In this document: one piece after another, positions 4,230-48,259 of the stretch
Layout of the letters: each line of letters starts with the position of its first letter
Position numbering within the stretch: position 1 is the first letter of the stretch
From: Psammoneis japonica
Lineage: Eukaryota
Assembly: GCA_008632985.1 (NCBI GenBank)
Contig: QPGO01000248.1
Span: 1-64,000, forward strand
Direction: 5' to 3'
DNA length: 64,000 nucleotides
The notes under the pieces: generated by a model
The model's input: only the letters and a program-made list of their open reading frames with translations
Told to the model about the DNA's origin: nothing
Databases searched by the model: none
Made by a program: the position numbers and the translations under genes

Positions 4230-4624
4230 GCTGTATTCTTGACACCGATGACTGTGGGATTTGTTCTCGCGTCTTTGCGATTCTGTTTCGAAGACTAGAG
4301 ACGAAAGGTGGCTGCAAGCCTATAATCTAAATTAGGGACTTGATATCGACAGTGTCGTCGACAGCAAATTCAGAGGATGATCGATAACAAGGGGTATCAG
4401 AGAAGGATTCGTGTAAAATGTCTTTCAACGCAATCTGGAATCAACGCCGTTCAATAAAAAAGCAATCGCAACGTGCAAGCAACGTGCAATCAACCAACCT
4501 TCTTTGCGCCTTATTGCGTGCACGACGCACAGGCGGGGGGCGAGCGACGGACGCTGGACGGACGGACGTCACAAACGCATGTCGTCTGTGCGTGCTCCGT
4601 GCCCCACTGCCGACAGCGATTCCA

Positions 4625-7600
4625 GATTTGAGAAGCGGCGTGGGCAATCCACAAGAGGACAGCGACGGGGACCGGTTTGACCCGGTCTGGTGGAGGATCC
4701 TCTTTCTTGTAGAAATGGATGTGGCGGCTGGTGCAGAAATCCATGTTGCCTTGGAGTGTGTGCCGCGGGTCCGGGGACCCCACTGCAGCGAACATTTGGC
4801 CAATCGACCGCAAGGCACCCTCAGCGGTGCGTGCGCGGACGGGATTGCCACGTGGGGCAATGGCGCCTGTACGGAATCGGTGCATGAAAACTTGGAAAAA
4901 GATGACTGGGTCATCGACGTCTTGCAAGAGAGGGTCGAGGGCCAAGTCGTTGCAGAAACTTCGCCAGAGGTCCCAGTGGGTGTTGCTGGAGCTGGCGGAA
5001 GAAGTGGCAACGCCGTGGGCAACGGCATGTTGCACAGCTCCAAGATCACGTAGGAATGCAGCGTGGGTGGCGGGGTCCAAAGGCGCCAAGAGGGAGTCTG
5101 TGGGCAGTGAGTGTCAAAATGTTGCAAGAAGGCACGGTTGGACAATTGTTGCAAGCGAGAGGCATCATCTGCAGCGGTGTTTGACGGTCCCGGCAAGCAG
5201 TCATGGAGCGACAGGTGGTGGTGGAAACGTTGGTGGTGACCTTGGTGTTGAAGGAGGGGTGCTGCGACCTTCGCAGTCGTGGTGGAGCCCTTGCATTGAC
5301 GAAAGAGAGTGCCGGTGTTGTCCGTGCGGTTGAGCACTGTGCGCTCTCGAATGTCGAAACAGTCCGCCGCGACACAGGATTGCACAATGCTGCCGACCAA
5401 CTCCAAGTCGGTGTTGGCAACATGACCGCGGGGATTCTTAAAGGTGGACAGGCGGTCGGTGACTGCTTGAGGGAAACGCACGCGCCACACGATGGGTCCG
5501 GCGTTGTGTTGTGGTCTCCGACGGCAAGCAGTGGAGCAACGCAGCGTGGTGCTGCATGCGACCGCTGACGGCGTGGGGAGAAGGACGCCACCTGCACCAT
5601 GACCGGCTGCATCATGGCAGCCTGTGACAGTGGGCGACAGGGGGACAAGTTCTTGGATGCGGGTGGGGCGGAGATCGAGCCCGCGGTGTGACAACCGAAA
5701 ATCGTCCAAGATGTCATGAAAGTTGCGGGCAAGACGAACTCACCCGTCAGGTTTGGTGTGGAGCGAGGCTTCCTGGAGTTCAGAGAACAGATTGTGAGAC
5801 CCGGGAATGCCGGGCGTGAGGGATCGCAGTTTGCCAAGAAGCTTGTGCAGGTCGGCAAGCGCTGCCCGCTTGCGATGGCGGGGAAACTCTTCGCACAGCG
5901 TGGTGCGGAGGCCCTCGCGGCGTCACGGCGCAAGGCGGATGGTCATGGACAAAGTGTCAATGATCCACCCCAGGACCTCCTTCTGCGTTGACCAAGTGGC
6001 GTCGCCTTTGCGGAGCTTTTTGACTGAGATTGGCTCCTTGCAACTCGTGTGGTCTCGGTTGTCGAGTGGACGAAATGCATCGTCAATGGCGTGCATTGTC
6101 GTGTGATGCACATTGCGCAGCGATTGTTTGGAGCCTTGGGCGGCGCCGACAAAGTCACCAACGCAGATGTCGACATGTTGGAGGCGCTGCCGGTGGTGGT
6201 GCGCGAGGTGTGGATCTGGCGTGTCTGGCACTGGGACAGCGATGGACGGATTCACGTCAGTGGTGATGGCGTGGTGCTTTGGTGGTTGGCTGTCAAGGCA
6301 AGGCTCGAGTGGGTGTTCCGGTGCCCGATGGTTGTGCACAAGCTGGCGATTGGCAACGTCGGCGACCGTCTCGGTCACTGTGCTAAATGCCGGAGGTGAG
6401 TTGGACCATCCCATGGGTGACCGAGTTGGCATGGCTGCCAGGGGAGGTTCCCGGGAAGGCGGGGAAAAACCACACCCAGTGTGGGTGCTTGCTCGGGCGC
6501 CAGCTGCATGCGGTGGAAACCATCAGCTGAGTCAATCTTCGTCAGACAGACGCGGCCCTTGTTTGGATTGGCAAGGAGAGCACGCCGAAGGATGCGGTCC
6601 AGCGTGTGCCCGAACTGCATGGATTCCATTGGCACATTTGGCTGAGCAGAGGGATTGACACCGCAGAACGTGTGGTCCACAATCGGTCGTGGTCTGCATG
6701 CGTGTTGTGGGACAACGCCGACAGGGCTCAGCCGTAGATTGGGTTCATTCTTGACGTTGTCGCATGGAACAACCACCCAGAAACCTTTGTCGACACAGTC
6801 AGACATGTCTTCGCGCAAAAACTCAATGTGTTCGTAGGTGGACTTGTGTGGTCCTCGTGCGATGCTACCTTGGAGCTCAGCGTTGGACCATGGCTCGTCT
6901 GCAACAGTGACCGGTGCCCCTCGACATTTGCAACTGGTGAGCACTCGGTGTGCTGCATGCTGTCGCATTGCCACCAATGGTCCCCAGTCACCTCTGCCAC
7001 TGTGCAGACGCAACAAGCAACTGAGGCCTCTAAGGTGCAACAATTTTGCATCGCGTGCAATTTGCTTGCCCAATTTGTCAGTCAGTGCTGATGCAGCCAC
7101 ATCTTGTCCACGTGTTGTGGGGTGGAAGCACCGTTTTCTAGACTCCACTTGCGGGGGTTGTGGATGCATGGGCTTGTGTGCCCATGCGGGAAGTGGCTCT
7201 TGGTTCCATGTCCCCAAGCAAGAACCATTGCCGATGACCCATTCGGTCTTCCAATGTTGCGTGCCCCACGTGAGAAGGTCAACCTGCTCCTGCTCTGTGT
7301 GGTTGTGATGATGATCGGCACGTGATCCGCAGTTGTTGTTGCACTGTCCAATGAAATGGTGTGGGAGACAACGTGGCGCCCCTTGGGAATCCGTGGGCAA
7401 GGCGACATTGTCACGGGCGCAGCGCTGCTTGACGGTGCGCGAACCCACATTGGGACGCTCCCGCAAGACCGTGAAGCGTTCGTCGTGCTGTTCGTTGCGG
7501 ACGATGGAATTGTCGCCAGGTGCATTTGCGCGGTTTGGTCCTGGCTGTGGCTGCCCAGTGGTCTGCGAACGCGGCATCGTGGGTGGTTGAAGGACAGACG

Positions 7601-9750
7601 TTGGCAGGTCGAGACGCCAATGGCAGGTGCCTTGTGCGGCCTCAGCCACCACTGGGAGCGGTCGAAATGGGACAGGGTTTTGTGAGTGCGTTTGCGCCTG
7701 GAACCAATGGCACATCTTTGCCTGTGCGCAATGTTGTAGGTCCGCTGGCAACGTCGGGTGCAACACCACTTGCGCCGCCAAATCGTTTGCGCAGACGTCC
7801 ATTGACTGGTGCACGTGAGTCAACCACTGCACCAGTGGATGTGCTGCGCCAAAGGCTGCTGAGAGAACGATGCGCAGACCGTCGAAAGACTGTTGAACTG
7901 CCTGGATTGCAGTGGCCACCACAGCATCATCCAGGGCCTCCAACACCCGCGCACCCACCAAGGACGGTGTGCCATCGCCTCCATGAATCTGTTGACACAT
8001 GGAGCTGCGACAGGCGGTCTGCTCGGCTTGCTCCGGTGCAGTGATGCCGAGCAAGAAAGGGGCAATTCCCTGAGTTAACTCGTCCTTGTCATGCCCAGCA
8101 AAGTCGACTTGGGTGAGTTTTGTGACCAGGTTCACGGTCACCGGCACATTGAAGCACACGTGGTGTGCTTGCTGTTGCTCATCGATTGCATTTTGGACGG
8201 CAGCAATTCGGCCGGTTTTGGGAGAGGCCGCCAGCTGCGCCCAGAGTGGTGGCAGGTTGGCTTCATGATGCACCTGGCACAAACGCATGAGTTTGGTGAT
8301 GCCAAACTCTCTGCAGAACTCCATCGGTGTCTTGCCGCGCGATGCCGCCTGTTGGCGCGCTTCCGCGTCTGAACGTTGTTGGCGCTGTTCTGCTGTCAAG
8401 CTCTCAATGGCCGTGACCACTGGTTCGAACTGGCGTGGTTGCGGTGGTTGGCCTGCGTGGTGCGGAAGGTCACGCTGCACCATCATGTCAAAGAAATGAA
8501 TGAGCACTTCGTTGGGTGGCTGCACCATCGTTGGCCATGCTTGCGCTGCTTCGGACACATGTTGGTCCCCCATGCTGTCGCGCAACACGCCACTTTCAAA
8601 AAGTCCAGAAGTGGCCTGCATTCATTGACTGTGTTGGCAGCTGCGACAGCTCCCAGCACCCAGGTGAACGCTTGCTTTGGCATCAACGGCATTGAAAGCA
8701 AGAGATTGACATGCGCGAATGGCACCATCATGGTGTTCCGCGTCCTGACCTCAACCGCGTCTGGGTCGTTCGGCTGCACTTGTGGGTGCAATCCTTCCGG
8801 GGTCATGACAATGTGAGCTTGCAGCGCTGTGTCGGTCTGCACCCATGTGCCGTGTTGGGCCAGCTGAAAGGCATCATTGGCAATGGGTGCAAGTTGGCAT
8901 TGTCCCATCATCAGGTCGCCCACGAGCGCAAAGAATTGTCCGTCCCACGGTTGTGCTGGTCCTGCCACCGTGATCGGGTGCTGGGTTGCACGATGAAACA
9001 CCTGTGTGACTCCCACATTGTTGCCTCCTTGCACCCGGCAGTGCTGCACCTGTGCCACAGGCAAATCGTGCGAAGAAGCTGCTCCAACACGGGTCCTCAG
9101 CACGTTGGGATCATGGCAGGGCTGCCCTTGCAGTGGGACCATGAAGTCCTGCATGATTTCCGCACAGTTGCCGGCGTGCGGATCCTTTGTGGCGTGCAAG
9201 CAGCAATCCCGACAGGTCCGGATTACTGCTGGTGGTGCTGGAACTCCCTGCCCCACGGGACCTGCTGGCGGTGCGGGTGGCACTTGAGGTGCCGGCTGTT
9301 GGGGAGGCCCTCCCGGGGCTTGTCCTCCCTGCGCTGCGGCAGGTTGTGCCGCTGCTCCTGGCACTGCCGGCGCCACTGGATGCACCGGTGCTGGTGGCAC
9401 GTTCTGGGCGTTGTTGGCCGCCGGAATCGGTTGTTGATTTTGTCCGCCCCTGGGTTGTTGTGCCGCCGCAGCAGCATCCGGCGGCGGATCATTTCCGACA
9501 TTTCCGTCTTGGTTCATGACGTGTGACTATCCTGCGAGCTTCATAGATGCAGCGGCAGATGGTATCCTCCGCCGAACACAATAGCGCTTTTAGACTATCT
9601 ATTCGGCTTGCTGCTAAAGCTCTTCGGAAGAATGAGCAACAGCAGCTTGCTTCCAAACGCCAACTTGAATGCGTTCAATGTGGTAGAGCGGGGGGTGATT
9701 TCCCGGTGCGTCATCAACGGGTAATGAGGTCATCTCCCCTTGTCGGTCTT
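4625..9750 (-). mobile_element. Tyrosine-recombinase retrotransposon (DIRS order, Ngaro/PAT-like), copy 1; 3'-truncated and hypermutated
   Basis: Gag-like ORF from ATG 9517 ending in a Cys/His knuckle. RT motifs (LSPVGVVPQ..RPRPIVD, KIDSADGF, PMGWSNSPPAF, ICVGDF = decayed YVDDF), RNase H region (HDAAGHG, DLELVG, ADDASR) and the N-terminal part of the YR ORF. Collinear with copy 2, with several frameshifts. Confidence 0.9.
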
Positions 9751-13649: not shown

Positions 13650-16330
13650 AAGTGGTCCTCGTTGCCGAAGGATGGACGGTAGAGGGGGCGGTCGTGCATT
13701 TATTTGCTGCCAACTTTATCAGAGAGACATTGCTTGGACAACCTGCTCTGAAGCCTGGAATGGGCATTGGTGCTTTGGTGTGATGGCATCTCACTGATTT
13801 GTTGATTTTTGTGACAAGCGCCATGCTGTTGACCGGCATGTGAGTTGCTCGCGCAACACAGCACACACACATGTGTGAGTGTGTGTGGACATTGGCAAAT
13901 TATGTCTCAGGGCAAGCTGTGTGTCACAATGACACTGCAGTCCTTGGATGATGGCTCACTTGTGGGATGTTGTCAGTGTCACATGTGAGCCAAGAAACAC
14001 AAGCATCTCCATGCATTGACAACTGGAAAGTCACTGGTCACTGCCAGGTGTCTCAGGTCAAGCCATGCTGTGTCATGATGACATGGCGGTCATTGGATGA
14101 TCACTCACTTGTGGGATGTTTTCAGCACCACATGTGAGCCAAAACACACAAGCACCTGTGCATTGAAAATGGAAAATTGCCAGTGACTGACAGTTGCTGC
14201 TGGGTGCAACATGCAACATCATTGCTCAAAAATGCAGCACGTGCCAGCCATCCCCAAGTGTCAAATGTCCCTCAGCATCTCTCACAATTTGTTTCTCTGG
14301 AGACAGGAAAGCACACCACTTTCACCCTGCACTTGTCACTTTGTGACAACACATCACCAATTTCTCAAACTTTGTCACCACAATGGGTGCCAGCACATTG
14401 GGGCTCTTTTGATTCATTGCAGTGGGTGCAGTGGTGTTGTGTGGTGTCGCTGTGTCTTGCCACACAAAGTGTTGCTGCAGTTGCTGGTCTGAGCTGGGAA
14501 CAGATTTCACACTCAAAGAGCCAAATCCAGTGCTCCAGCACCACCCAAAAGACCTGCTTGGTGCAGCTGCAAACCCAGGAGTTGCTTTTCCTGCCTCATT
14601 TTTCACGTTGCAAGCACACAAAAAGACTGTGTGTGGGTGGGTGGGGGTGAACTGCAAAACAAGGGCATGGGGGCAGGAACACCTGCTTCTTCTCAATTTT
14701 TGCTGGCAACAAGATTTCAGCTTGGGTTGAGTGAGTCACAGAGTTGGAGCAGGCAAACTCATGAGCTTGGAAGGTGTCTGCTTCAAGAGACAGCAAAAAG
14801 CCCACACTTTTTCTCACAGGTTTAAGAGTGCCATGCCTTTGAGGAGCTGTTTCACATGTGAAGTTGTTGTTGTGCAATCATCATTGTCCAGGGCAACTGG
14901 GGCATTGCTGCTCACCCACATCCTGTGCAAGCACAAGGAAGTTGCCAACAAAAATTGAGCATGGGGCTGTGCTTCTGTTGAAAAAGATCCCATTGCAACT
15001 CTGCCTCACTTGCTGGAGCTCACATTGAGCAGCTGAGAATTGACAGCCCAGGGCAGACATTCAAGGCTGCTCTCACTTTGAAAACACAGGCAAAGGGTTC
15101 TTTGGGGTGAAAGTGCTGTGTGCTGCAACCTGCAACAACCACGATGCTTGTGCACAGGTTGGTGCTCAGAAATGTGTGCCAGATGTGCTGGTTGCTTTGC
15201 TTTTGCCCAGTGCTGGCAACCAGGAAGCAGCTTGCAAGAAGAAATTGGGCGTGATGGCTTTGCTTTTGCCCAGTGCCAGAAACCAGAAAGCCTGCAAGAA
15301 AGCAGGCACACAGGCTGGTGTGCTCTGAAATGCACTGGACATGGTTGCTTTTTGTTTTTGTCAAGTGCCACCAACCAAAAAGAAGATTGCAGCAAAGTGG
15401 GTGATTTGGGAGAGCACGTGGCTCAGACTCTGTGGCTTGCTCTTAAAAGGCATTGCTGGCCCAAGGCCAGAGCTCAGACCACAAAGTCTGCAGCCACAAG
15501 CTTGCAAAAAAGGGTGAGCACCAGTCAGCTCATGAGGTTTCCAAAATTGCCTTCAAGGGGGAGCAAACTGGGCTTTGTTGGATGGCAAGAAGTTTCCCAG
15601 AATCAGGCCAGCTTTCCTTGTTTGCTTCTTTTGTTTGCAAGAAAGCAATGCATTTTGGAGATCACACAGAGCATGTGTTCATTTGCCCCTTCTGGGATGA
15701 TGTGCACAAACAGGTTGACAGCCCATGATGCTCTGCACCACAGCAAGATTGGTGCTCTCACTTGGTTGCTTGTTTTCCTGACTCAAGAGTTCCAGCCCCC
15801 CTCCCCACTTGGAATGACTGGAGTGACCTTTTCTTGAAACCACCAAGCCCCCACTCTGGTCAATTTTTTGTCAGTTTTTTGTTGGGGCATCCTGTGGTCC
15901 AGCAGCCATTTTTGCTCCAGCGCTGTGCAACAAGAGGGAACAACATTGGTGTGACTGCTGTGTGTGCAGATTTGGGGCCAAGGCAGCCAAGCACCGCACC
16001 TTTGGTGCTTTGTTGCAGCACCACCAGCACTCTGAGCCAACACACAGTGCAAAAAGCAGCCAGTGTCATCATTGTTCTGTCACAGTGGGAAACTTGCCAG
16101 CTGCACTTCTTGGCTTGTTTGTTGCTGAAGCCAACCCAGTGGTTTTTGTTGGTGGGCACACATGCACTGCGGCGTGCCTCTTTTCCTGTTGTCATTTGTG
16201 GCACCTCACCGGTTTGAGGACTTTGAAAGCCAGAGCTGGTTCCTGAAATGATTTGGCAGTGCATGAGTTGAAGCATTCATTTTGCTCGGCAATCGGGCAG
16301 ATTGTCCAACGTGAACAGGGGCAACGATGA
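13650..16330. repeat. Old degenerate repeat/TE block depleted in both TpA and CpG
   Basis: TG/CA-rich, with spurious Cys/His-rich ORFs in all frames. Contains a diverged ~146-bp tandem duplication (13904-14049 / 14050-~14190) and a ~63-bp one (~15194 / ~15257). Confidence 0.75.
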
Positions 16331-16826
16331 GCGGCTCACGCCGCCCGTCTTGTTCCTTCTCCTGCGGCTCTCTAGTGCCATCTAGAGATCTTCCAATGAT
16401 GGACTGGAATGGCTTTGCCAGCGGATGCGCAAGCCTCATTCCCAAAAACCCAAGCTGGAGCGGCAGGGCCAGAGGGCGGGAGAGGTGGGAGTGTTAAAAA
16501 CTGTCTGGCGGCTTCTTGCTCTTTGTTGCTCTTCGGAAGAATGAGTGAAGCAAACGAGAGAAGAGCAGAAAAAACCGTCATTTGCTCGCCAAGTTCGCGC
16601 AAGCACGTTCAAATTTGAGTTCAAACGGTTTGCATGACCCAACGGTCAAATGCGGGTCATTTGCCTTGTCGCACTGCACAAGGTGGGCGGCTCACGCCGC
16701 CCGTCTTGTTCCTTCTCCTGCGGCTCTCTAGTGCTGTCTAGAGATCTTCCAATGATGGACTGGAATGGCTTTGCTGGCAGATGCGCAAGCCTCATTCCCA
16801 AAAACCCAAGCTGGAACGGCAGGGCC
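16331..16826 (-). repeat. 3' terminal B1-A2-B2 split direct repeats of element copy 2
   Basis: 140-bp B repeat at 16331-16470 and 16687-16826. 195-bp A2 at 16493-16687 matches 22508-22702 with 6 differences. Confidence 0.95.
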
Positions 16827-16896
16827 TTCCAGCGCCACCTACAGTGCCGTGCACTTTTGGGAGGGTGGGTGGGTTGAGGCTGGAAGGCTGTGGTGA

Positions 16897-18072
16897 TCAG
16901 GCGTCTTGAGGATTTTGAGGGACGTCAGCATCAGGGTGGAGGACGAAGTCGCCACCGGCGAGCATGTCGCGAGCGAAGTTGCGCATGACTGGTTCTGCTT
17001 GCAAGTGCAGGTGTCGCAACATTTCGTCGGATCGCCAGCGGCCTAAGAGCCGAATGAGATTGGTGTCCACATGGGCACAAAGGAGGGCCATTGCTCCGGC
17101 GGCACGAAGACACCGAGCGGCAACATCTCGGGTGGTGAAGCCGAGATTAGCCGGACCGAGAGCAGTGACAGCATTGCGCAGCATGCTGGTGATGTCGGCC
17201 GGGGACACACGATGCCAGGTGTTGTTTTGAAAGCAAACACCAAGGGGTGTGTCAGGGAGCGCACCGTGGGTGCGCAAGTGTTGGACACGGCGGATGAGGG
17301 CTTGAACCGGGCACAGGTGGGGGTGACCGGAAAGACCAAGCCCCAGAACTTCGCCTCACACTCCATTTTTCTGGGCAGCAAAGGTGAGAGTGGCGAAGTC
17401 TGCTGTGTCAAGGTGTGCAAGTGGAACTTGCATGGTGTCCAGGTGAGCACCACCAGACGCAAGCCGGACATCGGCGAAACGAAAGGGGGTGGTGTCTGAT
17501 GGTGTTGCGGTGCACTCGCCAGGCCGCAACAAGAAGAAAAAGGCAAGTGCAATCATTTCAGCAATGGCTTGTGTGCCCGGGTCATTGCTGAGGGCTGCGG
17601 CAGTCATAATCCATTGCAGCACTGCAATTGGGACCGGTTTTACGCGGTCTGGGGGTGGATCCTGCTTCTTGTAAAAACGGACTTGCCGGGTAAGGCGGAA
17701 ATCCATTGTGCCTTGGGATGTGTGGCGTGGATCCGGGGACCCCATTGCAGCGAACGTTTGGCCAACCGAACGTGCGGCATCTTCAGCGGTTCTTCCACGG
17801 ACGGGATTGCCCATCGGCGCGAGGACTCCTGTGCGGTGTCGGTGCAAGAAGACTTGGAGGAAGACAACAGGGTCGTCAACATCTTCGAGGAGTGGGTCGA
17901 TGGCCAAAGAGGAGCAGAACTCTCGCCATTTGTCCCAATGGGTGTTGGCGGCGGAGGCTCTGGAAGAGGTGACGCCATGCTGGACTGCGTGTTGAGCAGC
18001 ATTGAGATCACATATGAACTCAGTTCTGGTGGAGGCATCCAGAGACGCCAGGAGAGTTTCTGCGGATAGCAC
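16897..18072 (-). pseudogene. Tyrosine recombinase ORF of copy 2, inactivated
   Basis: FFFLLRPGECT, QKNGV*GEVLG (in-frame TGA at 17356-17358, likely from CGA), RCLRAAGAMALL and LLGRWRSDEMLRHLH, with His at the catalytic Tyr position. Confidence 0.9.
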
Positions 18073-21000
18073 AAATTAAAGTGGCACAAAAATTCACGGT
18101 TGGACAAAGACTGTAGTCGTGAGGCATCGTCAGCGGCAGTGTTGAGGCACCCAGGCAGGTGGTCATGCAACCCCAAGCAGCGATGGCAGCGTTGATGGTA
18201 GGATTGGCATTGAAGCAACCGGGAGGCGGGTTTGACGGCAGTGGTGGCACCTTTACGTTGCCAATGCATGGTGCCTGAATTGTCGGTGCGTGAAAGACTA
18301 GTGCGTTCACGGATGTCAAAACAGTTGGCGGCGCCGAAGGACTGAATGACACTGCCGGCAAGTTCCAGGTCTGTGTTGGTGATGAGACCGCGTGGGTTGG
18401 AGAAAGTGGAGAGTTGACTGCTGACACTTTTGGGAAAGGGCAGTCGCCACACTGCAGGACCCGCATCTCTCTGTTGACAGCGTCTGCAATTGCCGAAACG
18501 GAGAGTGGCTGCTCTGGGTGCTGTGGTGCTGGTTGGCAGGAGGACGCCGCCTGCGCCGTGACCTGCAGCATCATGACAGCCGGTGAGTGTTGGTTTGAGT
18601 GGAACCAATTCTTGAATGCAAACGGGTCGGGCGTCTAGGGTAGATTCTAGATCCCGAAAATCATCCAGTGTGCAGTGCGCATTGGCGGAGATCCGGACGC
18701 GTGAGTCCGGAGTGGTGTGTCGGAGATTTTCTTGGAGTGCTGAGAAGAGACCCCGGGAGCCGGGGACAGCAATGCTCAGAGAGCGTAGCTCTCCCAGCAA
18801 TTTCTGACAATCGGAGACGGCAGCACGTTTACGTGTGCGGGGGAAATCCTGGTGCAGCGTTGTGTGAAGTCGGGCACGCCGTCGGGGCGTGAGTCGGATG
18901 GTCACAGCGCGAGCATCTATGAGCCAACCCAGGACTTCTTTCTGCGTGGACCATGTGGCATCACCCTGGCAGAGCTTCTTGATGGAGACGGGCTCTTTGC
19001 GGGTGGCTGGGTCATGTGCATCGAGTGGGCGGAAAATGTCATCGAGAACATGCAGCATCACACGATGAACGTTGCGCCGGGCTTGCTTCGAACCTTGCGC
19101 AGCGCGGAGGAAGTCGTCAACATAGATGTCGATGTGTTGCAAGCGGCGGCGCCGACGCGGACGGAGGTGTGGGTTGGGCGCATCAGGAATGGGCACGGCC
19201 TGGGAAGCTGCGGCAACTTGTGGTGGTTGGTGCTTCGGCGGGCGGCTTTCTAAAAGCGATTCCAGCGGATGTGGCGGTGCTTGGACGTTGCGCACCAAAT
19301 CCAAATTGGCGATGTCAGCGACAGTCTCCGTTGCTGTGCAGAACAATGGCGGGGAGTTGGCCCAGCCCATGGGCAAGCGTGTTGGGATTGCAACCAATGG
19401 TGGTTCGCCCGGTTGGTTCGGGAACACTGCACCAAGTGTGGGAGCCTGTTCTGGCGCAACTTGCGTGCGGCAATGGCCATCAGCCAAGTCGATCTTCATG
19501 AGATAGACCGTGCCTTTTCTGGGATCGGCAAGTGGGACACGGCACAGAAGGCGGTCGAAGGCACATCCAAATTGCATGGCTTCCATTGCAGCATTGGGTT
19601 GCGTGGAAGGATTCAGCCCACAACAGGCACAGTCTACAATGGGGCGGGGGCGTCGACCATGTTGAGGCACCACGCCAATTGGGCTTGGGCGAAGACCGGG
19701 GGTGTGACACACTTCCTCGTAAGGGATGACAACCCAAAAACCCTTCTCGACCATGTCGGCCATGTCTTGGCGCAGAAACTCGATGTGTTCATAGGCGGAT
19801 TTGTGTGGACCCCTGGAGATGCTGGCGTCTGGCTCAGCATGCGTCCATGGTGCATCGGCGGCGGTGATGGGGGCACCTCGGTGCTTGCAAGTGCTCAGCA
19901 GTCGGTGAGCTGGGTGTTGCTTGACTCGGTGGAGTGGACCCCAATCGCCTCTGCCACTGCGATGACGTGACAAGTGACTGAGACCTCTGCGACGCAGCAA
20001 CGCAGCATCAGTTCGCATGTGCTCACCCAGTTTGTCATTGTAGATTGCGGCAGCAACATCCTGTCCACGGGCAGTGGGGCGGGTGCACTGCCTCTTGAAA
20101 TTCTCCACAGTCAGGGGTTGTGGACGTGATGGCGCGTCGACCATCGCGGATGAAGGCTCTTGGCTCCAAGTCCCCGAACTTGGGCCATTGCCGAAGACCT
20201 GTTCGGTCTTCCAGTTCTCCTCACCCCAGGTGAGAAGAGTGGCCTGTTCGGCGTCTGTGTGGTCATTGCGATGATCACAGGACGAGCCACAGTTGGTGTT
20301 ACATTGCCCTTTGTAATGGCAGGGAAAGCAACGAGGACGACCTTGGGCATCTTTGGGAAGTTCGATGTTGTTCCTTGCGCATCGGTTTTTGACATCGCGT
20401 GACCTGACGTTGGGGCGGTCACGAAGCGTGGCGAAGCGGTTGTCATAAGAAGGGTTGTGGACTGCGCTGTTGCTCCCTGCGGCTTGACTGATGGGGGGCG
20501 TGTTGGCAGGCTGGTGTTGAGTTGCCGGGGCCGGTGCGGCTCCCAGTGCAGAACTGGGGCTGGCAGCTTGCATGCTAGCGGGCAAGTGCGGGCGCCAGCA
20601 CATGATTCCTTTAGCCGCTTCAAACACAACGTTCAATGGTGAGAATGGAAGCGGGTGAAGGGAGGCTTCTTGAGCCTTGAACCAATGGCGGACTTCAATC
20701 TGCGCACAGTGTTGAAAATCCACGGGAAGGGTTGGGCACCAAGCAGCCTGTGCTGCCAACTCGTTGGCATGCCGGTCCATGTCTTGACGTTGACGGGTGA
20801 GCCACTGGACAACTGGATGGTTGGCTCCAAGTGAGGCAGAAAGCACCAGGCGGTGTCTGTCGCAGGACTGCTGAGCGGCTTGCATTGTCGTCGCCACAAG
20901 CGCCTTGTCTGGTGCTTCCAGGATCTGCGTGTCTTGGAGGGACGGGGCCGCAGCGCCGCCATGAATGTGCATGCACATGGCCTTGCGACAGGCGATCTGC

Positions 21001-22433
21001 TCGGCACTGTCTGGCGCAGCAATCCCAAACTGGAATGGGGTGATGCCTTGGGTTGGCTCGTCTTGATTGTGACCAGCAAAATCGAGCTGTGCGAGCTTGG
21101 TGACAAGGCCAACCGTGACTGGCACGTCAAAGTGAACGGCCATCGCCTGGCGTTGCTCGTCAATTGCATTTTGGACGACTGCCAGGCGGCCTGTCTCAGG
21201 CGCTGCGGCAAGGGCAGCCCACACAGGCGGTGGTGCTGTCTCGTTGAGGGCATGGCACCAATTTGTGAGCTTGGTGACGCCAAAAGGTCCCCAGAACTCA
21301 TTGGGAACCTTGCCCCGGGCAGCTGCTTGTTGACGTGCGGTGGCGTCAAGTCGAAGTTGTCGTTGTTCCGTGGTGAGCTCTTCAATGGCCTGTGTGACCG
21401 GCTGGAAGTGCTGCGCGGTGGGTGGTGCATGACCCAGTCTTCCAGGGATGTCCCGCTCCACCTTGGCATCAAAAAATTGAATGAGGGCTTCGTCAGGGGG
21501 ACGTGTCATGACAGGCCAAGGTCGCGCCACAACAGATGCCACTTGGTTGTTGGCAGTGGCACAGCAGGCGACGCGCAAGAAGTCGAGCAGTGGTCGGATG
21601 GCAGCCACCTTGTTGGCTGCCGCAGCGGCGCCGTGCACATGCTGGCTGGCTTGTTTGGGATGCAAGGGCTGTGCCAACAAGAGCGGCACAAACTCAAATG
21701 GCACGTGCATTGCATGTCGTGTCCGCATGACCTCCGAGTTTGGTGCATCCTCAGCCAGATGCGGATGCAGGCCTTCCGCATTGTTGGCGACATGCTCCAG
21801 GAGTGCGGTGTGGGTCGGTGCCCCAGTTCCCTGCTGTGCCAAGTTGAATGAGTCGCCCCCGAATTCGACCAGGGTAAACTGTCCACGGGTTGGGTCACCC
21901 GCCATTGCGCATGTCTCACCGTCCCAAGGTTCGGCAGGTCCGACCACGGTCGTCGGACAAGTGGTGACGCGGTGCAGGACTTGGATCTGTCCTTTGTCCG
22001 CTGCGCCGTCCTCTCGGCAGTGTGTGATGACTGCCATCGGCTGATCGTGACTTGACGCCGCTGCAACTCGCCCATGGAGCACGCCGGGGTTGCATCTCGA
22101 AGGTCCCTGAACCGGAACCGCGAAGTCTGGCATCGACTCGTCGTGTGCCCCCCAGTGTGGGTTGTCAGCGGCTGTGAGGCAAAAATCCCGACACATCGCA
22201 ATGACCGGTGGCGCCGCCGGCGCGGCTTGTGCACCCGGTGGCGGTGGCGGCACGACGGCTCCTGCTGCTTGCGGTGCCAACGGAGGCACCGGGACTTGTG
22301 GAGGAGGAGGTGGCGGAGCGTGTTGGGCTGCCGTGATGGCTGCTGCAGCTCCTCTTTGCGGTGGAGCAGGGTCGTTGGCATTCTGGGCGTTCTGGGCCCC
22401 TTGTCCTGCGTTTTGCTGCTGTTGCGCGTCCAC
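17640..22433 (-). CDS. Gag + reverse transcriptase + RNase H reading frame of copy 2 (mutated, now continuous)
   Basis: Pro/Gln-rich N-terminus, Cys/His knuckle CFPCHYKGQCNTNCGSSCDH, RT motifs RLPMGWANSPPLFC and IYVDDF, RNase H motifs. Probable start is GTG at 22433, inferred from tATG. Confidence 0.85.
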   Translation of the reverse strand: MDAQQQQNAGQGAQNAQNANDPAPPQRGAAAAITAAQHAPPPPPPQVPVPPLAPQAAGAVVPPPPPGAQAAPAAPPVIAMCRDFCLTAADNPHWGAHDESMPDFAVPVQGPSRCNPGVLHGRVAAASSHDQPMAVITHCREDGAADKGQIQVLHRVTTCPTTVVGPAEPWDGETCAMAGDPTRGQFTLVEFGGDSFNLAQQGTGAPTHTALLEHVANNAEGLHPHLAEDAPNSEVMRTRHAMHVPFEFVPLLLAQPLHPKQASQHVHGAAAAANKVAAIRPLLDFLRVACCATANNQVASVVARPWPVMTRPPDEALIQFFDAKVERDIPGRLGHAPPTAQHFQPVTQAIEELTTEQRQLRLDATARQQAAARGKVPNEFWGPFGVTKLTNWCHALNETAPPPVWAALAAAPETGRLAVVQNAIDEQRQAMAVHFDVPVTVGLVTKLAQLDFAGHNQDEPTQGITPFQFGIAAPDSAEQIACRKAMCMHIHGGAAAPSLQDTQILEAPDKALVATTMQAAQQSCDRHRLVLSASLGANHPVVQWLTRQRQDMDRHANELAAQAAWCPTLPVDFQHCAQIEVRHWFKAQEASLHPLPFSPLNVVFEAAKGIMCWRPHLPASMQAASPSSALGAAPAPATQHQPANTPPISQAAGSNSAVHNPSYDNRFATLRDRPNVRSRDVKNRCARNNIELPKDAQGRPRCFPCHYKGQCNTNCGSSCDHRNDHTDAEQATLLTWGEENWKTEQVFGNGPSSGTWSQEPSSAMVDAPSRPQPLTVENFKRQCTRPTARGQDVAAAIYNDKLGEHMRTDAALLRRRGLSHLSRHRSGRGDWGPLHRVKQHPAHRLLSTCKHRGAPITAADAPWTHAEPDASISRGPHKSAYEHIEFLRQDMADMVEKGFWVVIPYEEVCHTPGLRPSPIGVVPQHGRRPRPIVDCACCGLNPSTQPNAAMEAMQFGCAFDRLLCRVPLADPRKGTVYLMKIDLADGHCRTQVAPEQAPTLGAVFPNQPGEPPLVAIPTRLPMGWANSPPLFCTATETVADIANLDLVRNVQAPPHPLESLLESRPPKHQPPQVAAASQAVPIPDAPNPHLRPRRRRRLQHIDIYVDDFLRAAQGSKQARRNVHRVMLHVLDDIFRPLDAHDPATRKEPVSIKKLCQGDATWSTQKEVLGWLIDARAVTIRLTPRRRARLHTTLHQDFPRTRKRAAVSDCQKLLGELRSLSIAVPGSRGLFSALQENLRHTTPDSRVRISANAHCTLDDFRDLESTLDARPVCIQELVPLKPTLTGCHDAAGHGAGGVLLPTSTTAPRAATLRFGNCRRCQQRDAGPAVWRLPFPKSVSSQLSTFSNPRGLITNTDLELAGSVIQSFGAANCFDIRERTSLSRTDNSGTMHWQRKGATTAVKPASRLLQCQSYHQRCHRCLGLHDHLPGCLNTAADDASRLQSLSNREFLCHFNLCYPQKLSWRLWMPPPELSSYVISMLLNTQSSMASPLPEPPPPTPIGTNGESSAPLWPSTHSSKMLTTLLSSSKSSCTDTAQESSRRWAIPSVEEPLKMPHVRLAKRSLQWGPRIHATHPKAQWISALPGKSVFTRSRIHPQTA

Positions 22434-22507
22434 AATGGACTCGCCAAAGGTTCTTCCTGCGAACAACAGGGAGCTGTGGCGGAGGCATCCTGCGCCGCGT
22501 CGATGGC

Positions 22508-22702
22508 GTTAAAAACTGTCTAGCGGCTTCTTGCTCTTTGTTGCTCTTCGGAAGAATGAGTGAAGCAAACGAGAGAAGAGCAGAAAAAACCGTTATTTGC
22601 TCGCCAAGTTCGCGCAAGCACGTTCAAATTTGAATTCAAACGGTTTGTATGACCCAACGGTCAAATGCGGGTCATTTGCCTCGTCGCACTACACAAGGTG
22701 GG
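22508..22702 (-). repeat. 5' terminal A1 repeat of element copy 2
   Basis: Direct repeat of 16493-16687. Contains the inverted repeats ATGACCC...GGGTCAT and CAAATG-CGGGT-CATTTG. Confidence 0.95.
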
Positions 22703-22830
22703 TGGAGGAGCACGGCGCATGTGCGGCGATCATGGACACGAGCTATTTGGCAGCTAAAAAAGTGTGTAGGTGATGACCGCCTCATTTATTTTTTGAGGCG
22801 AGCCAATGGAACATTAACAGTGCTCTTCTG

Positions 22831-25449: not shown

Positions 25450-28400
25450 AACCCATCAACACACATGCGATTAACATCCGTGCTATCACTCACATCCAAT
25501 TTGCACACCACTCACATCCAGCAGGCATGTTGCTTCCTTTTGTCCCAGTCACTTTCATACAGTTGTTCTGCCCCATTGCTCACAAGTGGCCTGGTCATGA
25601 GTGAACGCTCACAGTTGCAGCTTCATTCTGTTAAATTCCCCTCAGGAACACAGAGTAGAGCACTGGCTTCCCCACAGCAGGAGCTGAGCAAAACTCTTCT
25701 TGCATGCTGTGCAGACAGTCCAGTTGCAGTTGCAAACTTCAGACACAACCTTGGGAACCTGTGTGTAAAAGGAATGGTTGGCTGTGTTCCATGGCACAGA
25801 TCAAGACACTGCTGTCTGGATGCAAAACAATGCAAGACACACCAAAACACCAAAATCCCAATTGTGTGCCTGACACCAACTCCACTTTCTTGACATCAAC
25901 TGACAGAAGATCAGAACTCAAGAGGCATGTTTTCAATGAGCCTGAAGCCATTGACAACAAAGGCAACAAAGAAAGTCTCAAGCCCCACCTTGCAACTCTG
26001 TGTCAAGCTTCTCCCCCATTGACTTTGAAAGTTGAAAGACACGTGCTGCACGGGGCACCACAACACAGAGAAATCCACACATTTGGGCTTCTTTTGCATT
26101 GGGCTTTCAACCATCACAACATTGCACACAAGCAAAGTCACTTTCATGCCAATCTTAAGTTGGTTGAGTTCAAGAAGGACAGACTGGGCTGTGTGGACAC
26201 CCGCTCTTGCACAGCCCACAATTCACAGAAGTTTTGTGCACAGCTGCGCATGCAAGGACAAGGGCTGTTTTCATGAGAAGAAGTTTTTCATGCAGTCAAT
26301 CCAGCCTGAACATGTCTGTGGCACACCAAGCTCTTGAATGCCATGGTGATGCAAAGGTTCTTGCACTGACCACAGCCAACCTGACAAATGATGGGCAATG
26401 CACAGACACAGCACTGCTGCAGGAAATGGAAGAAGTGACATTGTGAACAACCACAGACAAGTTGTCAAGGTGGCAAAATTGTGCCCCAACCTTGACAAGC
26501 ACTGACATGAGATCAAGTGAAGCAGGGGGGGGGGGGCAATGATGATGTGCGCTGCACAACAAAGGCACCAGCAGCAGTGGGTCCTTGATGTGCTGAGAGT
26601 GTGGGGGCTGTTCGTCTGCAGGGACCCAAAGCAGGCCTGCTGTGATCTCTCATGTGCCATCACACCCTGTCATTGCTGCCAGCATTTCTTGCACAATTGC
26701 CAAGTGGTGCACAAAGCAAGAAATGGCAAGAAAAACCAGGTTTGCTGGGTTGAAAGCATGGCATCAAGGGCACCAGCAACTCAAGTGGCCCTGCAGCTGA
26801 CAAGGAGTGCACACCCAAAGAGTTTGGAAAAGACTCGCTCCTTGACAAGAGCAACAAATGTTTGGGAGATGACACTTCCACATTTTTGCATCTGTCCACA
26901 AGCAATGCTGACTCAAAAGGAGGCAGCGCTCACAATGAAAATGAGTTAAAAAAAAAAACAATTGGTTTCAAGGCCATGGGGGTCAGTCAGAGAAGCTCTC
27001 ATGTGCTGCTCACACTGGTGGCAAGAACTTTTTTTGCCAAGTTGATGCACAATGAGAAAAAAAAGACAAGAGCTTTGATGGCATTGGTGGTCTTGAAAGC
27101 ACCTGGATGTTGCCACCGTGTGTTTCTGACATCAGCTGCAGTGCTTGAGAAAGCTTTTACAAGGCAATTTCATGGGACCAACAAAACAAAAGACTGGGTT
27201 CCAGGAATGGAAAAGAATGTTCTGAACATTTTCCTCATCGCTGTGGCAATCACTCAGATTGTGCTGACCCAGAGGAGCGCTGTGGCTTGTTTGTGCACCC
27301 AAAGAGAAGGAAAAAAGGGGCTGCATTGGATGCAGAGTCAAGCAAAGATGAGACTGGCTCGCTGCTGGAGGAGAGGCTTGTTGCAAGGGATGTGCTGTCA
27401 TTTTGACTGTGACCTTGTGCTTGACCAGCAAAGACTCATCAGCATCGTGCATGAAAAGAGCAACACCAAGATGCAATGAGAAAAGCACCAGGGGGGCTTT
27501 CAAAAGGCTTGTTGACAAATCAAGTTGAGTCATCATGAAGCAATGTGACAAACTGCTTGCAGGAAAAAATCAGCTGAACCAGAATTGTTCAAAGCTGTGG
27601 GAAATTGGAGTTGGGTCAGTGCTGTGCTTTCAAAAAATCCAACCCAACAGCTGAGTGCATTGGAGCCCTTTGATTGAAACTGGGTGTTTACAAGAATGTG
27701 GAATTCAGACAACATTTTGGGAGCAACATGACCACAAGTGATGGGGAAGCACAGAGCACACAGGCAGTCAGAAACATGCAGAGAAAAAAAGTGGCACCAA
27801 AAAGAAGTGAAAAAGAGCACAGGAAGGAAGCCAACAGAGCAGCACAAGCAAGCATGAACCTGAGAAAGTCACACCATGTGATGATGCTCATGATGTGGTT
27901 TGTGTGAAACCAGCTTGACCACACCAAGTCAGCTTCAAGGTGGGTCATGCAACAAGTGAGTGCAGTTTGCCAAGGAAACAAAAACACAAAATGAGTGTGC
28001 ATGGTGTTGGACTCTGTGTGTTTTGACAAAGACAGTTGGCTTGAATTTTGGGTGCTTTGCTTGCAAATTAATTCTCAGTTTTGCACCATTGACAGCAATG
28101 CTGCAACACACAACATTGTGCTGTTGGCACCTGGCATTGTCTTGGGGGGCTGCAGCATTTTTGCCATTGGCAATGCTGCAACACACAACATTGTGCTGTT
28201 GGCACCTGGCATTGTCTTGGGGGGCTGCAGCATTTTTGCCATTGGCTCTCCCCACATGCCTGCAAGTTGATGTGTGGGGATTGCTCCACCATTTGAAGCA
28301 ATGCTGCAGCAGCATTGGTTTCTGGTTGTCTTGGAACCAAGTCACTTTTGTCATTCTTGGTGCCCCACATTTCCTTGCCAGTGGTCAGTTCCCAGCATCT

Positions 28401-29740
28401 TGGAGCTGCGGCAGCATTGTTGTCAGCAGCACCCCACATTCTCTTGGAACTTGGCACATGGTTTGTCTTGCAGACTGGGCCACAAAATGCAAGCACCATG
28501 AGACAAACAAGACATCCAGGCAACTCCTTTCTGTTGTCAGCCCCCTTTGCAAAGCATGGGTTCATTTCAAACAAACCATTGGTGCAAGAGGCTGTGGTGC
28601 TTGATTTGGTTGTTCATCTTGCTCACTTCTTCATTTGCAAAATTGCAATGCTCTCTGCAAAGGATTCTAGAAATTCAGCCAACTGCACTCTGATGTCATG
28701 CTGCTTGGTTGCACAAAAATGGAGTTGTTGACAGTGTTTCAAACAGAAGCCTGTTGTCTTGATGGCACAAAATGTTGCTGGTGCTCTCCCCTCAAGCAGC
28801 TTCCAGACATTGGTGCGTTTCTGGAAACAAACAACAGCACAATGATGCAATGTGGTCACTGGGTTAGAAAGGGCACAAATTGTGCTGGTGTCCAGCAGCT
28901 CTGCCATCAAGTGGTTTTTGCAGAAGGGCAGTCGTGCTGCAGCTGCAGTCAACAGCACATGAGCTCTGGCGGGCTGCAAATGTCGAGAAGAGGGCGGCAT
29001 GCAGGCTCTCACACTTCACAATTGCAACCCCATTGGATCTTTGCAGGCCATTTGGTGCAAAGTTTTTCAGCCTTCTGGCTGGTTGTCAGCTGAGTGGCAG
29101 TTTGACAGGGTGCGCAGTGAGCTCACAGGCATGCCAACACACACACACATGATGATGATCCATCCCACAGGAGCAGCAGACAAGCCCTCGCACCACAAGA
29201 ACAGGATCTGGCTGCAAAGTTGTTGTTTGCTGGAAGCTCTCCACAGGGCACACCAGTTGGCAACTGAAAAAAAAACCATTTGACCACAACAGCGCTGACC
29301 GCATGTGTTTGGAGAAGGATCCCAAGACGTGGCTGGTGGCGAGTCTGAGTCGTCTGTTGGAAACTTCTCTCCTTGCACCAAGCACCAGACATCCAAAAAT
29401 TGACATCAATTTTGGCCTTGTGTGGGAATGCAGAGAAAGCCTGGCTCTCCTTGGCTTGGGCCTTTTGTTGGCTTGCACTCTGCTTTTCATCTTGGGTCTT
29501 GACCTTCTCATGGCATTTCCTTGGGCAGCAGGAGCTCACAAGGAAGTGCTGTGCCACCACGCCAGTGTCACAAGCAATGTTTTGTGCGCCTGTCGTTCTC
29601 GAAAATGCACTGGCGTGGCCGTGAAGCTGTGCACAAGAAATGATGCGAGGAGAATTGATGGCCTGCCAATCTCCGTTGCATTCGCTTACGACGCCATTGT
29701 GCTCGTGCTTCAAGTGCGGCGAAAAAAAAAAATCTGAGGC
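25450..29740. repeat. Old degenerate repeat/TE block depleted in TpA and CpG
   Basis: Same TG/CA-saturated composition. CpG reappears in the last few hundred bp before the AlkB gene. Confidence 0.75.
28095..28246. repeat. Perfect 75-bp tandem duplication
   Basis: GCAATGCTGCAACACACAACATTG...TTTTGCCATTG starts at 28095 and again at 28170. Confidence 0.9.
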
Positions 29741-29851
29741 GAAATCACGCACGACCGACGACGCACGACGCACAATAAAATCGGCGCTCTGACTCCCAAC
29801 TGATGTAGAGAAGAGCAGAGATAACAGATAAAACAGCGGAAGGAAATTCGA

Positions 29852-30463: not shown

Positions 30464-30799
30464 AAAAAACAATCGTTTCCTTTTTTCTTCTTGTTCTTTC
30501 TCTTCTTGCTCCCATGCAAGCCATTGTCTTTCATTTCGGCTTCAATACGGCGAGCACGGTTAATTCACGGGAAGAATTCTACTGTACAAGATGAGCGGTG
30601 TCTCTGATGCCGTGATTCACTATGTACTGTATGGTGAGGAAGTCAACAGAAGCTACCCAGTCGGTCGTGACCAAATCACCGAATCATAGAATTCGCCAAC
30701 AATTTACTCCTAGAACAGAAAAAAGGCAAATGCATAAAGCAATCCTACTCAAATGCAACCATTCTTTCTTCTAGACTGACTCCTCTAGAGCTGACTTTG

Positions 30800-31960
30800 C
30801 AATGAGTGCGAGGCATGTCAGGTGGAGTCTCACTGGTTCTTGAATCTTGACAGGCAATCTGCAATGGACTCATTTTCTTGTTGCCTCACCTGGAGTGTGT
30901 TTTTCAGGGACTTTGTCAATGCGTCGAACAGATGTCCACCTCAAATTTGTTTCAATGTCTTGGTTGGATCATCCCTGATGCTGTCACAGCTTGGGTTGCC
31001 CAGGACCCTGCTCCTCATGTGGTTCATGCGGGCAGTGGTCATCCACAATCACAGCAAAGAATGCCTTTTGATTTGTTCTCACTGAACTGCTTTTGTGTTC
31101 AGTTTTGCATGGCAATCCTTGTGTTTGGTGTGGCACTTGTGCTCCAACTGCTTGTCCTTGCACTCCTTGGTTTTCATGTCAGCATTGCATGTGGTTGACC
31201 CTTGTGTGGGTGTGGTTGCTTGTGCATCAGTCTCAGTGCAGGCTTCTTGTCCTTTGAGTCAAGGTGCTCCATGTTCTCCAGGGAATCACTTTTCAGGGTT
31301 GAAGGATGAAACTTCATCTCATTTGGAAAAACTTCTTGTTCTTGGTGTGGCTTTCATTGCCTCTTCTGCCGTGACCCCTGTGCTGGCAACAGTCTTTCAC
31401 TTGTTGCCTTCTGCATCCTCTGAAACTCACAGTGCAGGTGTTGATGATCTTGTGATCTTCTGACGAGCTGGCATGCACTCTCAACAAGTGCGTGTGACTG
31501 TTTGGAGCAAGCGACAAACTGGCAAGTCAATGTTGCCAAAAGGGAGTCCTGCTGGGCTTCCTGTGCTCATTGCACTTGCCCTGGTTGCTGTGTTGGTTTT
31601 TGTTTGTGCCCTGCCGTCGAACATCGAACACGCGCCAAACAGATGCTGGTGCGCTTGTTGTTCCCAACAAACTGGATGATTTGCTCCAAAGAGTGAACAT
31701 AAAAAGTTGGTGAGACATTGATTGATGACAGAGAAGACCCTCCAAAGTGCCACGTCAGGGCTCAAAAGACACAGCTTCATTTCTGGGTCACATGTGGTGC
31801 ACCTTGAGCTGGGTGCTCCAACATTTGCGTGCATGGGTGGCTTTGCATGAGTGGCCACAACAAGACAAGCTTCCATTTTCCTTTGTTTTTGTTGCAAATT
31901 CTTTGTGATGCTCGACATGTTGATAAAATGACAGCACTGAAAATGGTTTGCTTCACTCAG
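30800..31960. repeat. Degenerate repeat block depleted in TpA (and largely CpG)
   Basis: Abrupt composition switch between two genes; spurious ORFs in all frames. Confidence 0.7.
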
Positions 31961-48044: not shown

Positions 48045-48259
48045 TTTCTGTTGTAACACAGTCAGGACTCCGGGGTTTATGACACCATCATCGATCATCG
48101 TCCAGTCGTCGAATAGATCTTCGATCTTCGACTTCCGCGACCACGCACGAGTGACACGAGGCAGTCAGTCCGAGGTTTGATGAAGGCCAGACCGTCAAAG
48201 CAAATTTGACAAAATCAGACGCAGAAAAAAGAAAATGGCAAAATTACGTCTGCCTTTGT

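Follow-up and report, generated by a model that had tools for sequence, protein, structure and literature searches.

The stretch analysed here, called the window, comprises 64,000 nucleotides of contig QPGO01000248.1 and contains a tyrosine-recombinase retrotransposon whose two A repeats, A1 and A2, differ mostly at TA dinucleotides. The differences probably reflect, in a small sample, conversion of TpA to TpG or CpA by the host, which affects transposons and old repeats and leaves the neighbouring genes mostly untouched. The case is built on the anatomy of the element, the compartments in which TA is depleted, the net direction of change, a rule for the bases around TA, and the finding that the trait is one of the host rather than of the element clade. 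Protein outgroups, family copies and base composition are three independent lines, and all indicate a net loss of TA. Within this one window the TA-erasing process appears limited to transposons and repeats and does not seem to be genome-wide.

Repeat pairs and the direction of change

A1 and A2 align without gaps over 198 bases at an offset of 6015, with 96.5% identity and seven differences (3.5%), all of which are transitions. Six of these had been named in a reading made from the bare sequence, and each is recovered by the alignment: 16507/22522 (G in A2, A in A1), 16579/22594 (C/T), 16619/22634 (G/A), 16633/22648 (C/T), 16667/22682 (T/C) and 16676/22691 (G/A). The seventh, 16688/22703 (C/T), lies in the last bases of the repeat, a segment shared with the beginning of B. 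A1 contains five TA and A2 contains one, in TTAA, and each copy contains 13 CG. This recount agrees with the earlier one, in which four of five TA sites differed and the survivor lay in TTAA. Of 195 positions, 10 form part of a TA in one copy or the other, and four of the six differences fall there (hypergeometric P=5.1e-5). The TA-centred excess in the A pair is real and beyond chance. The B pair (143 bases, 95.1% identity) shows five difference events. Two CA/TG doublets, one CG/CA and one AG/AA had been described before and are present, and an edge difference (A/G) at 16330/16686 is added to them. The direction of change is not derivable from the A pair alone; read in the opposite sense, four of the six differences fall among the 31 positions that are the C of a CA or the G of a TG in A2 (P=0.006).

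Direction was sought in other copies of the family. Family contigs came from one public run (share 0.55); two sister runs contained next to none of the element. Alignment of 1200 contigs on positions 16691-22760 gave 596 variable places, and the analysis used the 40 best supported of them, none of which lies in A1. At these 40 places nearly all other contigs disagree with the copy in the window, and the disagreements amount to 37 events: 15 CpG to TpG/CpA, five TA to CA/TG, three CA to TG doublets, five CA to CG, six other transitions and three transversions. A gain of TA in the window's copy was found at none of the 40 best-supported places. Per base, change at these places reached 6.25% at TA (40 TA sites in the element), 1.8% at CpG and 0.35% elsewhere (Fisher test, TA versus other P=2e-5, TA versus CpG P=0.03). 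The sequence-only reading had held that the A pair gives the mutation spectrum directly and that CpG is spared. Neither point can be kept, since CpG to TpG or CpA is the largest class (15 of the 37 events) and the CG odds are 0.16 in the old blocks described below.

Conserved tyrosines supply the protein outgroups. A conserved site was defined as one with tyrosine in at least 60% of at least five homologues. At five such sites in open reading frame 1 (ORF1), the element retains one tyrosine, that of the YVDD motif, and has three cysteines and one histidine. A second, older related element in the window has no tyrosine, two cysteines and three histidines at the same sites. At 23 looser sites the first element has nine histidines, six cysteines, four tyrosines and four other residues, and the second has eight histidines, eight cysteines, four phenylalanines, three other residues and no tyrosine. 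The replacement codons at conserved sites of ORF1 and ORF2 are TGT/TGC and CAC. The direction from TA to CA/TG, asserted earlier on slighter grounds, is upheld overall by the composition of the compartments, by the change of tyrosine to cysteine and histidine, and by the five TA losses against no gain at the 40 places.

Comparison of repeats within the window gives a further view of the same bias. Wherever a repeat pair has doublets, CA/TG is the most frequent, except in the 59-base pair 2908/3280, which has AA/CG only. The two alignments between the elements contain 45 and 14 CA/TG doublets, with the second-ranking doublet at 12, and the small pairs contain three to five. Such doublets are not specific to TA, because either an ancestral TA or an ancestral CG can resolve to CA/TG. 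Between the two elements there are 94 single CG differences and 10 single TA differences, and most CG is still present. The CA/TG doublets between the elements are, for the most part, probably better explained by near-complete loss of TA in both lineages.

The reverse course, in which A1 gained TA by C-to-T change at CpA/TpG and A2 retained the older state, is very improbable, whether the change resembled repeat-induced point mutation (RIP) or was plain deamination. The placement of four of the six differences on CA/TG positions of A2 is what it has in its favour, together with the TA density of A1 and a GTAT site in A1, both of which look young. Such a process would enrich TA, yet depleted DNA in the window has TA odds of 0.04-0.12 with CA/TG odds of 1.5-1.9. 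A near absence of TA with an excess of CA/TG is the opposite of the outcome expected from CA to TA change. The absence of TA gains at the 40 best-supported places and the replacement of conserved tyrosine by cysteine or histidine, not the reverse, also speak against it. In addition, the letters of A1 appear not to be private to this copy.

Compartments and sequence context of TA loss

The compartments were drawn by eye from a per-kilobase TA map. For the whole window the TA odds are 0.30. Host-gene stretches (26.5 kb) have TA odds of 0.56, CG odds of 0.99 and CA/TG odds of 1.16. In the two retroelements (10.4 kb) the corresponding values are 0.12, 0.83 and about 1.5. The element with A repeats, taken alone, has TA odds of 0.16; it is apparently young, with an open ORF1 and 255 family contigs at 99% identity or more. 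The old blocks (22.3 kb; 14-16.3, 26-29.5, 31-32 and 48.5-64 kb) are the most depleted, with TA odds of 0.04, CG odds of 0.16 and CA/TG odds of 1.8-1.9, and include a stretch of 2520 bases (48245-50765) that is free of TA. CA is about as frequent as TG in depleted DNA, and both strands are affected about equally. CpG loss appears to be slower than TA loss. The loss of CpG in old blocks fits the CpG methylation described for diatom transposons (PMC9998398).

The edges of these compartments are sharper than 300 bases and coincide with element ends. Around the second element TA is dense as far as position 4512, stays sparse until 9224 and returns to high density from 9528 (poor zone about 4513-9527), and TA is dense from 22744, just beyond A1. 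The host-gene parts include introns and spacers, and their lowest kilobase window has a TA value of 0.34, against 0.00-0.14 in the adjoining blocks. This contrast bears on an explanation that needs no targeting, namely a general TA to CA/TG bias, through Pol eta error or repair, that becomes visible wherever selection is absent. The rather low TA of the host-gene parts, with their slight CA/TG excess, would suit such a bias. Given the introns and spacers that keep their TA beside stripped blocks, the sharp edges, and an apparently young element that is already strongly depleted, it has very little probability. The motif expected of Pol eta is also missing. The sequence-only reading had matched the adenine changes outside TA to WA>WG (W, A or T), and this match was not borne out: outside TA, five of the six A:T>G:C changes at the 40 best-supported places are CA>CG and one is AA>AG. 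Pol eta is unsupported because CA>CG dominates outside TA, the process is not genome-wide, and the base 3' of the adenine governs the rate. Mutation of this type was rejected as a candidate on the CA>CG changes and on the limitation of the pattern to repeats.

The TA sites that survive are a biased sample of contexts. In the elements and old blocks together, surviving TA is divided into three RTAY, 53 mixed and 61 YTAR sites (R, purine; Y, pyrimidine), compared with 307, 499 and 192 in host-gene parts (chi2 80, P=4e-18). There are no GTAC survivors, against 91 GTAC in host-gene parts, and 23 TTAA survivors against 50. The two elements alone have 2/30/21 sites in these classes versus 4596/8809/3281 in 78 related elements from other hosts (P=2e-5). 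No comparable context effect was seen among surviving CpG. A relative resistance of TTAA and CTAG had been suggested for testing. Both do rank among the most resistant contexts, and the rule extends to the base 3' of the adenine. A per-strand model, in which the 3' neighbour of each adenine determines how fast that adenine disappears, fits the ten classes of context (chi2 7.5, 6 degrees of freedom), whereas a single common survival rate does not (chi2 114.9, 9 degrees of freedom). The fitted exponents are 0.52 for a 3' A, 0.78 for G, 1.75 for C and 2.34 for T, which gives the order of loss T>C>G>A. The model predicts a bias among products, and old blocks show it (ratio 1.46 versus 1.21, P=0.0016).

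The proposed host process would change A:T to G:C at TpA, on either strand, in transposons and old repeats. It would act strand by strand and most strongly where a pyrimidine follows the adenine (TAT > TAC >> TAG > TAA), such that RTAY sites would vanish first and TTAA and CTAG last. In young elements the loss of TA would outpace the decay of CpG. Removal of tyrosine codons, including that of the catalytic tyrosine of the recombinase, would disable the elements. The process presumably acts on integrated DNA, and the enzyme may be an adenine deaminase of the TadA/ADAT2 type.

Editing at the level of RNA could in principle give a similar spectrum. ADAR-like adenosine-to-inosine (A-to-I) editing of double-stranded RNA from the element, fixed by reverse transcription in each round of copying, is nevertheless highly improbable. 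In its favour, retroelements are the most evident targets, they lose TA before CpG, and ADAR favours U before the edited A (PMC10661471). ADAR is also described as preferring 5'UAG (PMC10661471), whereas TAG and TAA are resistant here, and this 3' preference argues against an ADAR-like enzyme. The two strands are affected about equally, as seen in the near equality of CA and TG and in the change of tyrosine to both cysteine and histidine, and the most stripped DNA consists of old blocks without sign of retroelement genes. Moreover, comparable changes in Bigelowiella natans are reported to appear in the integrated DNA of clonally growing lines (Mettrop et al., bioRxiv 10.64898/2026.01.13.699255).

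An artefact, in which a modified base at TA or CG in silenced DNA was misread during sequencing, can hardly be the cause. At five TA and 15 CG sites among the 40 best-supported places, contigs of the public run read TA or CG and the window reads CA/TG, as misreading would have it. The contigs otherwise agree, with 255 at 99% or more, and add five TA in 5.8 kb at these places. The coding changes from tyrosine to cysteine and histidine are common to two elements that are 66% identical. Errors from misread modified bases do not usually approach a near-total loss of TA.

The element, its relatives and the age of the A-pair differences

The element is laid out on the minus strand as A1 - ORFs - B - A2 - B (Table 1). 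The A copies lie 6015 bases apart, the B copies flank A2, and a spacer of 22 bases (16471-16492) separates the 3' terminal B from A2. This layout is the one defined for Ngaro/PAT elements (PMC4157794, PMC7192593). On the basis of the A/B layout, the reverse-transcriptase homologues and the recombinase model, the element is a tyrosine-recombinase retrotransposon with split direct repeats, of Ngaro/PAT type (order DIRS). Homologues of ORF1 (35-58% identity) carry PF00078, the reverse transcriptase family, in precomputed annotation, and the closest named homologue is from the diatom Pseudo-nitzschia multistriata. A Pfam search with ORF1 matched no family of any kind; P0002 against RVT_1 gave E=2.7e-6 and 27.7 bits, slightly below the Pfam cut-off of 29.6 bits. 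A methyltransferase domain, which bears on PAT versus Ngaro, did not turn up in this general Pfam scan, and no search aimed at methyltransferase was made. Like Ngaro/PAT elements, the element has split direct repeats and a putative reverse transcriptase followed by a tyrosine recombinase; unlike them, the copy in the window has a stop codon in the recombinase and a histidine at its catalytic tyrosine.

The recombinase was recognised by alignment and structure. ORF2 aligns over its full length with frames of about 390 residues in 29 related loci. A structure predicted from that alignment (predicted local distance difference test, pLDDT, 86; predicted template modelling score, pTM, 0.77) best matches Cre recombinase, followed by Xer and integron integrases (best E=2e-6, template modelling scores 0.54-0.70). 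A fold predicted from the single sequence was uninformative (pLDDT 37.5). Pfam found nothing in the pieces of ORF2, searches of PDB by sequence, alone and as a profile, gave no meaningful match, and the Pfam family Phage_integrase matched seven of 30 recombinase sequences weakly (best E=0.008). Across the 30 aligned sequences R184, K236, R321, R324 and W347 are invariant and the tyrosine is nearly so. In the window's copy, conserved Tyr188 is cysteine (TGC) and Tyr355 is histidine (CAC); Tyr355 we take to be the catalytic tyrosine by its place in the RW.SD....Y motif. Both tyrosines are kept in 27 of the 29 relatives. The exceptions are L059, in which the conserved tyrosine positions of the frame at 4996-6189 are histidine and cysteine, and L077, whose frame at 7552-8724 has cysteine at one conserved tyrosine position and histidine at a third. 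The single in-frame stop of ORF2 is TGA at 17356-17358. Other family contigs read G at 17358, giving CGA, and the stop is a CpG-type change private to this copy.

Relatives in other hosts served as controls. A scan of metagenome contigs gave 444 relatives among at least 601 matched stretches, and 78 loci with 39-51% protein identity were retained. Their TA odds have a median of 0.63 and a minimum of 0.37. Low TA is a trait of the host and not of the element clade, because these 78 relatives elsewhere are not depleted. The sole related locus leaning the same way is L052 (whole locus, 3927 bases), with TA odds of 0.37, CG odds of 0.49 and CA/TG odds of 1.62. Among related elements with differing repeat pairs, the terminal pairs of four (L002, L008, L030 and L050) show ordinary spectra, with CpG and other changes and none at TA. 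Since these pairs are ordinary, the TA-centred divergence is not a by-product of repeat copying. The terminal pair of L014 (1-346 versus 5948-6296) has about nine differences, five of which are TA versus CA/TG, three of them at GTAC. The TA state occurs in either copy of that pair, and TA odds over the whole element are still 0.65. TA-centred divergence thus seems to occur in at least one more host. An exact-pattern scan of the metagenome contigs for the A repeat gave no matches. Several related contigs of about 6 kb (L004, L005, L010, L016, L035, L041, L044, L058 and others) have exact end overlaps of 123 or 127 bases, which most likely reflect closure of the assembly on A repeats, or tandem or circular forms.

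The favoured course is that A2 lost four TA after this insertion while A1 kept the older state. An alternative is that the six differences predate the insertion, A1 and A2 having been reverse-transcribed from separate parts of the RNA that already carried lineage differences. This is unlikely. The TA bias would stay real under it, and the pair would be neither a clock nor an internal control. In the model of Goodwin and Poulter, the transcribed part of A1 is reportedly inherited and not copied from A2. The divergence of the pairs (3.5% in A, five events in 143 bases in B) and the 4:0 asymmetry of TA would fit a pre-insertion origin. The six sites are not among the 40 best-supported of the 596 places; if that ranking was by share, the letters of A1 are not private, which would fit a pre-insertion origin as well and argues against a private gain of TA in A1. 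Three relatives (L017, L034 and L076) have complete A and B sets with 100% identity, which fits the premise of identity at insertion, with the proviso that metagenome assemblies may hide differences. A2 has, furthermore, been termed 'an identical repeat of A1' (PMC4157794).

Loss in A2 through a host process remains the preferred reading, and the following points weigh against it. The terminal repeats of DIRS-1 are non-identical, and only the termini are described as rebuilt from an internal template (PMC7192593), so the two A copies need not share one template in this order. The six A-pair sites themselves carry no assigned direction. All four TA differences have TA in A1, and A1 is dense in TA for this element, with five in 198 bases compared with 35 in 5817, a density that matches the host flank. 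One TA of A1 is in GTAT, the most erasable class. This site and the density would fit either a recent gain in A1 or a protection of A1. The explanations would be that A1 is shielded, that selection maintains these TA in the family, or that some of them are young. The predicted product bias is missing in the two elements (ratio 1.21), and about half of nine directly seen TA changes match the predicted strand. The 40 'private' differences are a tenth of the 596 chosen by the tool and could include assembly differences. Their direction presumes that the other copies retain the older state, and the five CA>CG changes suggest events on the other branch. The compartments were delimited by eye in a single window of 64 kb, and transposon genes could not be recognised in the old blocks. 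Finally, the host looks diatom-like on the basis of one gene and of the best named relative of the element. That gene is an ArsA/GET3 exon, the closest named matches of which are from Fragilariopsis (70%) and Pseudo-nitzschia (72%), with Thalassiosira lower in the list. These matches spoke against a dinoflagellate or B. natans as the host, and B. natans had no protein among the best 120 matches listed. The family assignment of a WD40 gene in the window (WDR83-like) did not help to place the host.

Table 1. Positions of the retroelements, their repeats and the TA-stripped blocks in the window
Feature	Positions	Strand	Basis and remarks
A1, 5' terminal A repeat copy	22508..22705	minus (element orientation)	repeat alignment; 5 TA, 13 CG
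ORF1, putative gag-like/reverse transcriptase/RNase H region	17640..22508	minus	1622 open codons, YVDD motif, homologues
ORF2, tyrosine recombinase	16897..18075	minus	overlaps ORF1 in another frame; alignment and model
Internal B repeat copy, the first B read along the element	16684..16826	minus	repeat alignment
A2, internal A repeat copy between the two B copies	16493..16690	minus	repeat alignment; 1 TA, 13 CG
B repeat, 3' terminal copy	16328..16470	minus	repeat alignment
Second, older related retroelement	4668..9250	minus	DNA about 66% identical; protein 52-60% identical to ORF1; broken frame
Old block without most TA and CG, adjoining the element	13902..16327		1 TA per kb, CG odds 0.07-0.08
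Old TA- and CG-stripped block	25767..29686		per-kb map, edges
Short TA-stripped block	30787..31923		1 TA in 1137 bases
Old TA- and CG-stripped block, repeat-rich, reaching the window end	48246..64000		per-kb map, edges

A and B repeats could not be recognised in the second element, which at 66% identity is too diverged to serve as an outgroup. An open frame of 732 codons at 2121-4319 on the minus strand has no Pfam match and runs across diverged repeats that recur about every 370 bases (2833-2966, 3280-3338 and 3525-3704). Many open frames of 130-340 codons, on both strands and without a family match, occupy 48000-64000 and 14000-16300. A Pfam search of 16 long open frames in old blocks (13 in 48-64 kb, three in 26-29.5 kb) found no match. 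Long frames in these blocks are probably a by-product, because TAA and TAG are nearly absent from them. A perfect 75-base tandem of two copies lies at 28095-28244, inside a block stripped of TA and CG.

Host nuclear genes in the window encode ATG22-like, CN-hydrolase, Hint-module, GNAT acetyltransferase, WDR83-like WD40 and ArsA/GET3 proteins. The Hint (hedgehog/intein-like) module occupies residues 571-769 of an 834-codon open frame at 33846-36350 on the plus strand. A frame for an AlkB-like 2-oxoglutarate-Fe(II) oxygenase (PF13532, E=6e-12) is present at 29825-30463 on the plus strand, in a normal stretch between two TA-stripped blocks.

Comparison with known systems

A process of this kind has so far been described in one 2026 preprint, on B. 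natans (10.64898/2026.01.13.699255). According to that preprint, two integrated viral regions had acquired 231 new mutations, of which 230 were A>G or T>C, all at TpA; they were seen in mutation-accumulation lines, and in some lines only. Clusters poor in TpA and rich in CpA and TpG are enriched for reverse-transcriptase and DDE domains, and its authors propose an ADAT2-like DNA adenine deaminase. The two cases are alike in that TpA becomes TpG or CpA on either strand and that mobile or foreign DNA is affected while the host DNA alongside is normal. They differ in several respects. The host there is a chlorarachniophyte (Rhizaria), and the host here is diatom-like. The process was observed directly in lines of B. 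natans, whereas here it is deduced from the sequence. The depletion reported there is mild (odds of 0.45 in a virus region), compared with 0.04-0.12 over tens of kilobases here. The changes there are at TpA only, whereas CpG changes are also frequent here and CpG has been lost from old blocks. The main text of the preprint gives no neighbour rule beyond TpA and mentions no diatoms; in the window, the base after the adenine matters.

The context rule invites comparison with known deaminases. Anticodon position 34 follows the universal U33. TadA and ADAT2 are listed with the target 5'ACG at that position and with the entry 'RNA, DNA?' (PMC10661471). Both this activity and the proposed one would be A-to-I, and U33 followed by 5'ACG gives a U-A-pyrimidine context that resembles the TAY rule found here. 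They differ in that T after the adenine is preferred over C in the window. The 3' preference is at least compatible with a TadA/ADAT2-like enzyme, and the three-base rule can be compared with that of candidate deaminases.

It is possible, and is proposed here tentatively, that diatoms, or at least this one, possess a genome defence in which DNA adenine editing erases TpA from transposons and repeats, mainly as T-A-pyrimidine. Such editing would kill elements by changing tyrosine to cysteine or histidine, including the catalytic tyrosines of recombinase and reverse transcriptase, and together with CpG decay would leave silenced DNA rich in CA/TG. Full-text searches of the literature yielded no report of TpA-directed mutation or of RIP-like decay in diatoms. 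If the proposal is correct, this would be a second, distantly related algal lineage with TpA-specific A:T>G:C mutation of mobile DNA, and the signs in the unrelated metagenome contigs L014, L059, L077 and L052 would point to a wide distribution among marine protists. The genomic signature, TA odds below 0.15 and CA/TG odds above 1.5 with sharp edges, could be used to find targets elsewhere, and loss of tyrosine codons would provide a functional read-out. Open reading frames in TA-stripped blocks would be meaningless, because TAA and TAG are gone, and the dating of insertions by repeat-pair divergence would be badly wrong if TA sites were counted.

RIP in fungi is C-to-T change mainly at CpA, producing TpA. 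The pattern in the window is like fungal RIP in that a host process would make transitions in one dinucleotide context, disable repeats and transposons, and leave skewed dinucleotide odds. It is unlike fungal RIP in that TpA is destroyed and CpA/TpG is made. RIP of the fungal type was rejected as a candidate, with TpA depleted, CpA/TpG enriched and no TA gains at the 40 best-supported of the 596 variable places. If the proposal holds, the B. natans process would change from a curiosity of a single species into a class of eukaryotic genome defence that resembles RIP and has the opposite chemistry.

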